A DNA stretch of 64,000 nucleotides. Source: an uncultured Fidelibacterota bacterium (GTDB taxonomy: Bacteria; Fidelibacterota; Marinisomatia; Marinisomatales; Marinisomataceae). The notes under the pieces are model-generated. The model did not search any database and was not told where the DNA came from. It was given only the letters and a program-made list of their open reading frames with translations. The translations under genes were made by a program, and so were the position numbers. Within the stretch, counting starts at the first letter, position 1, and each line of letters opens with the position of its first letter. The stretch spans positions 13,951-77,950 of the forward strand of contig CACKGC010000002.1 of NCBI GenBank assembly GCA_902599655.1. Reading direction: 5' to 3'. Positions 6,869 to 9,561 of this stretch are shown here, in pieces.

Positions 6869-8932
6869 ATGCATATTTCAAAATTAGAAATTTTTGGTTT
6901 TAAGTCTTTTGCAAAAAAAGAAACTGTTCTATTCAATTCTGGAATTACAGGAATAGTAGGCCCTAATGGTTGCGGTAAAACAAATATTGTAGATGCAATC
7001 AGATGGGTTTTAGGTGAGCAAAAGACTAAAAGGTTAAGAAGTTCAAAAATGGAAGACGTGATTTTTAATGGCGCTTCCAATGTAAAGCCTTTAGGTCTAT
7101 GTGAGGTTTATTTAACAATTGAAAATAATAAAGGATTGTTACCTGTTGAGTATTCAGAAGTTGAAATTGGAAGAAGATTATATAGATCTGGTGAAAGCGA
7201 ATATTTTATAAATAGAAACAATTGTAGATTGAAAGATATTTCCAATCTTTTTGTTGATACAGGATTAACCTCAGATGCATACTCTGTAATTGAATTAAAT
7301 ATGATAGAACAAATATTGTCTGATAAAGATGATAGTAGAAGGCAAATGTTTGAAGAAGCTGCTGGTGTAAATAAGTACAAAGCTAAAAGAAGATCTGCTA
7401 TGAAAAAGTTCGATTTAAATTCAAGAGATCTTGAGAGAATTGATGATATAATTGTTGAGATTGAAATACAAGTAAAGGCATTAGATTTACAATTAAAAAG
7501 GTTTAAAAGGCATGAGAAGCTAACAAATGAATTAAAAGAATTAGAATTAGATTTAGCTTCAGCGAGGATTAGTGATTTAAATAATATAATTAGTCCTTTA
7601 GAAGAAATGTTAAAAAAGAAGAATAATCTTTTGCAAAAAAATACTTCGAAAAAAGAGATTGAAACCGTCGAATTTGATAATGCAAGAGATAAATATTTAA
7701 ATGAGAAAGAGTTGCTTTCAAAAATGAAAGCAAAGGTTGATAAGCTCACAGAAAAGCTACTTTCAGAAATTCAAGAAAAGAACCAAGAATCATCCAAAGG
7801 TGTTGGATTACTGGAGGATGAGCTTCAAAAGAAGATTGAACAACTTAACCAGTTTGACACAGATTACATTAAGATTGTTTCTGAATGTAATGAATGCGGA
7901 AAAAACATAATTGAAACAGACAAGAAGTATGAAAAGCTTAAGGATAGTATTGAAGATTACAGAGACAAAATAGATGAATATAGAAAAGAAAAAGAATTTG
8001 ATTTTTCAAAAATGGATGCATCAATAAAAAAGATTCAAGATCAAATTAATTCAAATAATCTTGAGCTTGAAAACAAAGAAAATGAAGTGAATAAGGCTTT
8101 TATTAAGATGGAGTCAATAAGAGCAAAGCTTGATTCAGAAAAATTTAGCAAAGATGATCTTTTTTATGAAATCAAAGAAGCTGAAATGAAAATTGCAGAA
8201 TCAAAAATTAAAAAAACTCAAATTGAGCAGAATATTTCTGAAAAATTTGGAAATGATGTTGTTTTAAGTGATTTGAAAGAATACAACATTTCTGATATGG
8301 TTTTTAGAGTAGAAAAAATTAAAAGAAGTATAGATTCTATTGGTCCAATTAATTGGGCGGTCAAAGATGAGCATGAAGAAAAAACTGAAAGATTGAATAA
8401 TCTTTTGCAGCAGAGGTCTGATTTGATTGATGCAGAAAATAATTTAAAAGAAGCTATTAAAAAAATTGATATTGTAGCTGAAGAACAGTTTTTAGATACA
8501 TATAATCAGGTAAAAGAAAATTTTGAGAAAATGTTTACAGTTTTTTTCAATGGAGGTAAGGGTACAATTGAATTATCTGATCGAAATGATCCCTTAAATT
8601 CAGATATAAATATTTTTGCTCAGCCTCCTGGAAAAAGAAATAACTCACTTAAGATGTTATCTGCCGGAGAAAAGTCCTTAACTGCAATTGCATTACTGTT
8701 TTCTATTTATCAATACAAGCCAAGCCCATTTTGTATTTTGGATGAAATAGATGCACCTCTTGATGATATAAATATTAAAAAGTTTACTGATGTTATAAAA
8801 GACTACAGTAAAACTACCCAATTTATTATGGTTACTCATAATAAATTGACAATGGAATCAGCAGATTGCATTTATGGTGTAACAGCTGAAAAACAAGGAA
8901 TTTCAAAACTTATGTCCATTGATTTTTCATAA
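6869..8932 (+). CDS. smc: Smc-family ATPase, unusually short (687 aa), no hinge domain
   Basis: GFKSF, Walker A GPNGCGKTNIVDAIRWVLGEQ, MEDVIFNG, FEEAAG, GPIN, signature LSAGE, Walker B/D-loop PFCILDEIDAPLD, QFIMVTH. Confidence 0.88.
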   Translation: MHISKLEIFGFKSFAKKETVLFNSGITGIVGPNGCGKTNIVDAIRWVLGEQKTKRLRSSKMEDVIFNGASNVKPLGLCEVYLTIENNKGLLPVEYSEVEIGRRLYRSGESEYFINRNNCRLKDISNLFVDTGLTSDAYSVIELNMIEQILSDKDDSRRQMFEEAAGVNKYKAKRRSAMKKFDLNSRDLERIDDIIVEIEIQVKALDLQLKRFKRHEKLTNELKELELDLASARISDLNNIISPLEEMLKKKNNLLQKNTSKKEIETVEFDNARDKYLNEKELLSKMKAKVDKLTEKLLSEIQEKNQESSKGVGLLEDELQKKIEQLNQFDTDYIKIVSECNECGKNIIETDKKYEKLKDSIEDYRDKIDEYRKEKEFDFSKMDASIKKIQDQINSNNLELENKENEVNKAFIKMESIRAKLDSEKFSKDDLFYEIKEAEMKIAESKIKKTQIEQNISEKFGNDVVLSDLKEYNISDMVFRVEKIKRSIDSIGPINWAVKDEHEEKTERLNNLLQQRSDLIDAENNLKEAIKKIDIVAEEQFLDTYNQVKENFEKMFTVFFNGGKGTIELSDRNDPLNSDINIFAQPPGKRNNSLKMLSAGEKSLTAIALLFSIYQYKPSPFCILDEIDAPLDDINIKKFTDVIKDYSKTTQFIMVTHNKLTMESADCIYGVTAEKQGISKLMSIDFS

Positions 8933-9015: not shown

Positions 9016-9561
9016 ATGGCAACAAAAATTAGACTTAAAAGAATTGGTCGTAGAAATAGACCTTTTTATAGAATTATTATTATTGATTCGCGAAAAAGAA
9101 GAGACGGTTCTGCAATAGAGCAAGTAGGTTGGTATAATCCAATTGAAAGTAATAAAGAGAAAAATTATGTCTTAAAAGAAGATAGAATTCTTGAATGGTT
9201 GAAGCTTGGAGCGCAAGTTACGGATCCTGTAAACAAATTAATGAAAAGATCAGGATTATCATACAGATGGCATTTAATGAAGCAGGGTTTATCAGAAAAA
9301 GAAATAGATAAAGCTGTTGAAGAATGGAAAAAAGAAAGAGACAAGGTAATCCAAGATAGAATTAAAGCTAATGAAGCTAAAAAAGAAAAATTAAAAGCTG
9401 AGAAAGCTGCTGCTAAGGTTGCCGATGAAGCACCTGCTGAAGAGGCTCCTGCAGAAGAAGTAGCAGAAGAAGCACCTGCTGAAGAGGCTCCTGCAGAAGA
9501 AGTAGCAGAAGAAGCACCAACTGAAGAAGCTGAAGAAAAGCCAGTAGAAGAAAAAAAATAA
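9016..9561 (+). CDS. rpsP: 30S ribosomal protein S16 with acidic C-terminal extension
   Basis: KIRLKRIGRRNRPFYRII, DSRKRRDG, WLKLGAQ. Confidence 0.97.
   Translation: MATKIRLKRIGRRNRPFYRIIIIDSRKRRDGSAIEQVGWYNPIESNKEKNYVLKEDRILEWLKLGAQVTDPVNKLMKRSGLSYRWHLMKQGLSEKEIDKAVEEWKKERDKVIQDRIKANEAKKEKLKAEKAAAKVADEAPAEEAPAEEVAEEAPAEEAPAEEVAEEAPTEEAEEKPVEEKK
9427..9518 (+). repeat. 42-bp perfect tandem repeat (about 2.2 copies) encoding EAPAEEAPAEEVAE in the S16 tail
   Basis: GAAGCACCTGCTGAAGAGGCTCCTGCAGAAGAAGTAGCAGAA at 9427-9468 and 9469-9510, partial third copy. Confidence 0.92.

Follow-up and report, generated by a model that had tools for sequence, protein, structure and literature searches.

The window analyzed here is a stretch of 64,000 nucleotides from an uncultured Fidelibacterota bacterium (GenBank assembly GCA_902599655.1, contig CACKGC010000002.1, positions 13,951 to 77,950 of the forward strand). 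At positions 6869-8932 it carries an smc gene whose product of 687 amino acids (aa) combines an Smc ATPase head with a shortened coiled-coil arm, in which no hinge domain was detected and a lone CxxCG motif occupies the predicted turn. The features of the gene are given below with their coordinates in the window, and the evidence for each of them is given in brackets.

6869..8932, + strand: smc gene, 687 aa plus stop (open reading frame translation; TIGR02168 and PF02463)
6869..7369, + strand: N-terminal half of the ATPase head, aa 1-167, with Walker A GPNGCGKT (AlphaFold2 secondary structure; homology to the full-length Smc P0123)
7370..7780, + strand: N-arm strand that is retained and runs colinear with full-length Smc, aa 168-304 (NCBIfam stretch 3-304; continuous helix from residue 168)
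7781..8008, + strand: apex module, aa 305-380, predicted as helix, 6-residue loop and helix (BLASTP gap; AlphaFold2)
7793..7810, + strand: conserved SSKGVG, aa 309-314, where the old arm meets the apex module (genus alignment; AlphaFold2)
7883..7900, + strand: tip loop E339-C340-N-E-C343-G344, with CxxCG at 7886-7900 (translation; AlphaFold2)
8003..8020, + strand: predicted break of the C-arm helix, aa 379-384 in EFDFSKM, at the end of the apex module (AlphaFold2; BLASTP homology from residue 381)
8009..8428, + strand: retained C-arm strand, aa ~381-520 (BLASTP to P0123; helices; boundary with the head estimated)
8429..8929, + strand: C-terminal half of the ATPase head, with signature LSAGEK and Walker B ILDEID (translation, BLASTP, AlphaFold2)

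Identity of the gene and its genomic context

These features raise a first question: is the short protein a true Smc or a member of a related ATPase family? TIGR02168 matches it with 718.1 bits (cut-off 567.35) in two stretches, the first of which aligns residues 3-304 with model positions 2-303, and PF02463 matches with 212.5 bits (cut-off 40). Both models and Foldseek identify an ATPase head of the SMC type that is split between the N- and C-termini, and in the Foldseek list for the structural model the top entries are heads of prokaryotic Smc together with coiled coil (5xei, 5h68 and 5xns). Rad50 enters the Foldseek list at rank 32, and the Rad50 models, with cut-offs of 700-1087, give 34-52 bits. 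The RecN model score is far under its cut-off, and NF045487, the archaeal ASRP model, reaches 75 bits against a cut-off of 300. The protein is an orthologue of bacterial Smc and a true Smc.

A search of the bacterium's own genome with PF02463 revealed one other match above the cut-off, located on a different contig in a frame of 614 aa that may be RecN; the window gene is the only Smc found there by this search. ScpB (149 bits) and ScpA (84.7 bits, truncated by a contig end) are both present, complete ScpA genes were found in three sister genomes, and a search of the own genome for the SbcC Walker B domain was negative. ScpA lies at the end of contig C18 and ScpB starts 22 bases into contig C10 (loci L031 and L032, genome G000), and the two are probably neighboring genes separated by a gap in the assembly. 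Directly 3' of smc in the window, the open reading frame at 9016-9561 (+ strand) encodes a ribosomal protein S16-like product of 181 aa, which we take to be about twice the usual S16 length, with a long acidic repeat tail (AEEAPAEEV...).

Loss of the hinge and structure of the arm

BLASTP comparison with the nearest full-length representative, P0123 (1174 aa), aligned residues 1-244 of the window protein with residues 1-244 at 68% identity and residues 381-686 with residues 867-1172 at 50% identity. Because the BLASTP and TIGR02168 matches stop at residues 244 and 304, respectively, and homology resumes at residue 381, which corresponds to residue 867, roughly residues 304-866 of a 1174-aa Smc are replaced here by ~76 residues (305-380) without detectable homology to full-length Smc. 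An alignment profile of the apex and tip, compared with PDB sequences, gave nine matches (best E 0.042), all of them coiled-coil noise.

The hinge domain PF06470 had no match in the window protein at E <= 1. Nor was it matched in the own 706-kb genome (completeness 81.5%) or in three sister genomes with a completeness of 96-99% (G012, 99%; G043, a single contig; and G005). As a control, the same search detected PF06470 in 10 of 14 control genomes. The original prediction had described a genuine Smc with its hinge replaced, and both parts of this description agree with the TIGR02168 score and with the lack of PF06470 matches in the protein, its genome and the three sister genomes.

The AlphaFold2 model of the window protein, built from a 77-row alignment, has a mean predicted local distance difference test (pLDDT) score of 82.4. 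It contains an antiparallel coiled-coil arm of approximately half the usual length, formed by helices 168-338 and 345-559 with short breaks. In order along the chain, helix 168-338 is followed by loop 339-344, helix 345-378, the break at 379-384, helix 385-460 and further arm helices. The CxxCG motif is thus located in the only loop that joins the N-arm helix to the C-arm helix, as had been expected from the sequence, and the model places C340 and C343 at the turn of the arm with pLDDT below 50. The SSKGVG motif at 309-314, which had been proposed as an alternative turning point, is modeled as helix (pLDDT ~64-65) and is rejected as the turn. Across 30 sequences of the genus, S308 and S309 never vary and G311 is kept in at least 90%, and SSKGVG together with the roughly opposite 379-384 break may form a discontinuity of the arm at the junction of the module.

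The cysteine pair at the midpoint

Translation of positions 7886-7900 (TGT AAT GAA TGC GGA) gives C340-N341-E342-C343-G344 of 687 residues, exactly as originally read. The cysteines of the protein are at positions 35, 78, 119, 340, 343, 622 and 667, which leaves C340 and C343 alone in the stretch from residue 120 to residue 621, and the midpoint of the protein is residue 344; the claim that the pair is alone in the arm region and central therefore holds. The translation has no histidine near C340 and C343. For comparison, any CxxC located between residue 171 and the point 170 residues from the C-terminus was found in only 3 of 147 full-length Smc representatives (>1100 aa). A complex prediction for two copies of residues 285-400 with zinc scored 0.02 against a mark of 0.42; it was run without controls and gives no verdict.

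Distribution of the gene and three tip forms within the genus

At E <= 1e-50, the smc gene was found in 35 of 38 species genomes of the genus, in which complete copies are 687-709 aa long and genomes are ~0.7-1.1 Mb in size. Close homologues, where named by their source, are assigned to Marinimicrobia or Neomarinimicrobiota. In other families of the same order, 15 of 16 genomes match, each in two pieces within open frames of 1171-1196 aa. Among 1.84 billion representatives (50% identity), the best 150 matches comprise one mini-Smc (701 aa), 147 proteins longer than 1100 aa and two other short proteins (866 and 754 aa). One locus of the genus (L039, on contig C9 of genome G044) is 98% identical to the window protein and also matches in two pieces (1-217 and 297-687); its translation contains a run of X, which indicates that the gap consists of unknown or masked bases and is no real deletion.

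The next question is whether the cysteine pair is conserved among these orthologues. The tip was read between the conserved flanks '...DYIKIVS' and 'IETDKKY...' in a genus alignment of 34 genomes (locus L033 was added separately, and one more copy stops before the tip). Three forms were identified. The C4 tip (11 of 34 genomes) has 29 residues with two CxxC knuckles arranged as CxxCG-x8-CxxCG, e.g., DCDDCGKPLTIISECGHCGKVKSDKKYTV. The C2 tip (9 of 34), to which the window protein belongs, has nine residues of the form 'ECxxCGKxx'. The C0 tip (14 of 34) has 23 residues and is free of cysteine, e.g., NQDVTKNLSDESREKFKNKNYTV. In a larger set of 209 short proteins, which is not random since part of it was ranked by likeness to the C2 tip, there were 142 C0, 53 C2 and 13 C4 tips and one unreadable tip; none of the 208 readable proteins had one or three tip cysteines.

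Both cysteines, the following glycine and the next lysine are invariant in all C2 copies (53/53 protein clusters and 9/9 genomes), and in the genus as a whole the pair is absent from the C0 genomes and doubled in the C4 genomes. Among C2 copies the x positions of CxxC vary (NE, DE, EE, DD), and the cysteine codons alternate between TGT and TGC, as they do among C4 copies. Since C, C, G and K are fixed while the x positions and synonymous cysteine codon sites vary, the pattern indicates that purifying selection maintains the cysteines wherever they occur.

To follow the tip forms on a phylogeny, the tip and 35 residues on each side of it were removed and a tree was calculated from 31 rows (loci L016 and L033 were dropped by the search pattern; this and all other trees are quick trees). 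On this tree, tip form requires at least six changes of state, with C2 in four places and C0 in two. The form of the tip (window region 7781-8008, loci L001-L043) is incongruent with the phylogeny of the remaining gene. Repeated identical origins of the forms are implausible because each form has its own shared indels, and the simplest reading of the mosaic distribution suggests that the tip has been exchanged between lineages by recombination. This incongruent distribution is a sign that an essential gene contains a small cassette that recombines. Sliding-window DNA identity near the tip shows a slight reversal at aa 320-338 (80% to a C2 lineage vs 77% to the C0 sister), which is not decisive.

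In the alignment, the C2 tip (9 aa) corresponds to the C4 tip (29 aa) less 20 residues. C2 may be a C4 finger that kept one knuckle after losing 20 residues, or it may be the precursor, with C4 arising by duplication of the knuckle; the genus tree, which has a polytomy at its base, does not favor either direction. AlphaFold2 prediction of a C4 tip fragment (mean pLDDT 59.2) gave the order knuckle, strand 62-68, knuckle and strand 75-82, and its Pfam matches were all sub-threshold (PF07191 Zn_ribbon_6, 18.5 bits with a cut-off of 25; HypA; zf-C4pol). The ESM Atlas clusters nearest to this fragment by language-model features carry PF04423 in 89%, 23% and 83% of their members, with a score of 0.87 that is under the 0.9 mark and makes this a weak lead only. 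C4, with two CxxC knuckles around a predicted beta-hairpin, is probably a zinc-ribbon finger holding zinc within one protomer, and C0 would be the same finger devoid of cysteines.

Short Smc proteins in other lineages

Is the replacement of the hinge by a cysteine tip confined to one genus? The 866-aa protein among the best matches (P0144) also lacks a detectable Pfam hinge domain and carries CKYC at 428-431, next to its midpoint at residue 433. Its family includes proteins of 865-867 aa and three partial copies of 695-785 aa with 44-66% identity to the query, and the motif 'YDK[ND]C..C..NG' at 428-431 is present in 21 of 21 family proteins and in locus L095 (22/22). The family was located in genus g67 of family f17, which belongs to the same class as the window bacterium, in three of four genomes (1.1-1.5 Mb), one of which has just a short piece of the C-terminus. 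A hinge search of two g67 genomes was negative, and ScpA was found in one of the two. In five other genera of f17, whole Smc genes have open frames of ~1134-1188 aa. When P0144 was used to search the genome contigs, 50 loci were revealed, and those with full-length matches span ~3.2-3.8 kb, the size of a full-length Smc.

In a tree built on head and proximal-arm columns, the two short clades fall in different full-length groups. Forcing them together made the tree 41 log-likelihood units worse (approximately unbiased (AU) test, p = 0.036; the constrained group was chosen after the tree was seen). Based on the placement in the tree and on taxonomy, two independent losses of the hinge, in the window genus and in the 866-aa family, are likely.

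A third short Smc is represented by two metagenome proteins (P0224 and P0367) of 754 aa with CSEC at 366-369, near the effective midpoint; no Pfam hinge domain was found in P0224, and a search of the genome contigs with it gave one locus that covers just residues 604-723 and revealed no relative. Because only 3 of the 147 full-length Smc have a CxxC in the arm or hinge while two other hinge-less lineages have one at the midpoint, a chance origin of the midpoint CxxC is unlikely.

Two further observations concern Smc beyond the genus. ESM Atlas clusters of 722-1004 aa with SMC_N and without a hinge family among those shown occur in Pseudomonadota, Spirochaetota and Actinomycetota, and hinge-less short Smc-like proteins may be widespread. 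In family f17, 20 of 42 genomes had no match to the 866-aa Smc query at E <= 1e-40, and these misses cluster by genus (0 of 6 genomes matched in g73, 0 of 5 in g74 and 0 of 2 in g75; genome sizes 1.1-1.7 Mb); Smc may be lost or far more divergent in such genomes.

Comparison with known systems

According to Buermann et al. 2017 (PMC5344682), engineered B. subtilis Smc(Zh), in which the hinge is swapped for the P. furiosus Rad50 hook, supports normal growth, so that the precedent named in the original prediction is real. Smc(Zh) and the Mini-Smc constructs described there share with the window protein an Smc head and arm, a small cysteine tip in place of the hinge, shortened arms and ScpAB as the partner. 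Unlike Smc(Zh), the window protein is natural, its tip is no Rad50 graft (no PF04423 match and no detectable donor), and the tip exists in three forms, one of them cysteine-free. The paper also states that Smc arms are functional only in periodic windows of length, with a main period of 91 residues, that natural arm lengths have modes at 163 (minor), 238, 341, 423 (minor) and 515 residues, and that an engineered window lies at 253-267. Roughly estimated from helix ends and midpoints, which is not the method of that paper, the arm of the window protein (~170 residues) is near the mode at 163, and that of the 866-aa family (~260) is inside the 253-267 window.

Rad50/SbcC resembles the window protein in that both are SMC-superfamily ATPases with a lone CxxC in the loop at the center of their antiparallel coiled coil, and the same half-site logic applies. 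It differs in that the head of the window protein is that of Smc, its partner would be ScpAB and not Mre11/SbcD, PF04423 has no match, and the cysteines are not conserved genus-wide. The archaeal SMC-related proteins ClsN/Sph are also short, and a zinc-hook motif in place of the hinge is reported for them in PMC9389158; they form a separate archaeal family, whereas the window protein is a bacterial Smc orthologue that stays below the NF045487 cut-off. Natural hinge-less SMC proteins of abundant ocean bacteria are described for marine Actinobacteria in PMC12153180 (2025), which concerns another phylum and states that CXXC is absent; the name Marinimicrobia has zero occurrences in that text. Finally, the C4 relatives resemble zinc ribbons in their two CxxC knuckles, the predicted strand after each and the sub-threshold similarity to Zn_ribbon_6, unlike the window protein, which has one knuckle, a 9-residue tip and no hairpin.

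A full-text literature search, in which most subscription journals were outside the coverage, yielded no paper on a natural ScpAB-type Smc whose tip is a cysteine hook or finger, and none that connects such a tip with Marinimicrobia. To the extent of that search, a natural Smc with such a tip was not found described, and the present analysis adds the three-form tip and a parallel second lineage.

Possible function of the tip

How could such a tip work? We propose that the window gene would encode the cell's only Smc, acting together with ScpA and ScpB. In its evolution, the hinge and the distal arm strands would have been replaced by the 76-residue helix-loop-helix module (aa 305-380), leaving a rod of ~170 residues per strand that ends in the 6-residue tip loop with C340-x-x-C343-G-K. 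One Zn2+ would be bound by two thiolates from each of two protomers, in the manner of the Rad50/SbcC hook, and this shared zinc would tie the arm tips together, while ScpAB and ATP would close the head end. Sharing of the ion by two protomers is the most likely arrangement because a lone CxxC alone cannot complete a tetrahedral metal site. The hook is favored since the lone CxxC lies in the tip loop, is under selection, has no usual ligands nearby and is fixed in another hinge-less family. We consider a Rad50-like zinc bridge between two protomers the best mechanism for the C2 form and give it about an even chance of being correct; zinc binding, its stoichiometry and dimerization through the tip are what we infer here.

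Several results weigh against this zinc bridge. PF04423 (Rad50_zn_hook) has no match in the whole protein at E <= 1 or in the tip fragments of four proteins at E <= 10, and the structural model is poor right at the tip, where residues 339-345 have pLDDT below 50. The tip cysteines are absent from 14 of 34 genus genomes, and among the query and its 120 best whole-protein matches (n = 121), 111 tips are C0 and 10 are C2; all of these smc genes are intact. On the tip-less tree, C2 copies are nested among C0 copies. Because C0 is the commonest form, swaps with C2 and is found in intact genes, a zinc bridge would be dispensable in the genus, and because four tip cysteines occur in 11 of 34 genomes, the C2 pair could be half of a one-protomer zinc site. 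In addition, the marine actinobacterial hinge-less SMC proteins are reported in PMC12153180 to lack CXXC. The idea of a Rad50-like zinc hook put forward originally thus stands in part: the motif is located at the predicted turn, its cysteines are kept in C2 copies and a midpoint CxxC recurs in a second family, whereas no Rad50_zn_hook profile match was found, and the refuting condition named originally, a lack of cysteine conservation in short orthologues, applies in part, with no tip cysteine in 14 of 34 genomes and four in 11 of 34. A zinc bridge would be one workable solution for the tip, not an indispensable one.

The strongest competing explanation, to which we give roughly half the weight of the zinc bridge, is that a four-cysteine zinc-ribbon finger would have lost one knuckle and the hairpin through a deletion of 20 residues, with the pair as its remaining half. 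This remnant would cap the turn of a single protomer, either free of metal or with a metal site that nearby acidic side chains or water complete, and would not join protomers. The dimer would then be held by arm-arm contacts, head engagement and ScpAB. The presence of C4 in 11 of 34 genomes and also in three of the lineages that branch basally, the alignment of the C2 tip as a shortened C4 tip, the low-confidence knuckle-strand-knuckle-strand prediction with its sub-threshold zinc-ribbon matches, and the fact that the C0 form works without cysteines are all consistent with such a cap. However, two thiolates alone would be a poor one-chain zinc site with no histidine nearby, purifying selection on the two cysteines is visible in four separate C2 lineages, and the 866-aa family keeps a single CxxC, not four cysteines, across 44-66% identity. 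That the tip is simply a tolerant loop with no role in metal binding or dimerization, in which the cysteines persist since C2 is young and was spread by recombination, seems to us less probable again. Three very different tips scattered on the tree among lineages that are 72-98% identical elsewhere would fit this idea, as would the judgment of Buermann et al. (PMC5344682) that it matters surprisingly little what kind of dimerization domain is present. It fits less well that C2 lineages differ by up to 28% overall, with varying x and synonymous cysteine sites, while the cysteines are kept in 62 of 62 copies, or that a midpoint CxxC recurs in independent hinge-less families vs 3 of 147 full-length Smc. 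The CxxC is also, as general knowledge, a classic thiol-disulfide motif, and a disulfide within it or between protomers could lock or sense the state of the tip; we regard such a redox element as very improbable, as the protein is cytoplasmic and DNA-bound, no thioredoxin-like fold surrounds the motif in the AlphaFold2 model, and the four-cysteine relatives resemble a metal site.

Significance of a hinge-less Smc

The role of the Smc hinge, i.e., dimerization alone vs DNA binding and gating, and the quantized length of the arm have so far been approached with engineered B. subtilis constructs. The proteins described here would be natural counterparts: hinge-less Smc of the essential type, with arms of ~170 and ~260 residues and tips with four, two or no cysteines, in abundant ocean bacteria. 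If the C2 tip is a shared-zinc hook, nature has made the laboratory's Smc/Rad50 chimera. If the C0 form is fully functional, there must be some other means by which Smc-ScpAB keeps its dimer together without a hinge or a hook.

A broader scenario, which we put forward tentatively and regard as doubtful in its entirety, is that streamlined marine Marinimicrobia replaced the Smc hinge by a cysteine-knuckle tip at least twice independently and that, in one very abundant genus, this tip exists as three interchangeable recombining cassettes, namely, a zinc finger, a Rad50-like hook and a metal-free form. If this is true, the genus would hold a natural allelic series in which Smc-ScpAB works with a hook, a finger or no metal-dependent tip, and the choice of tip could be tuned, e.g., by zinc supply in the water column.

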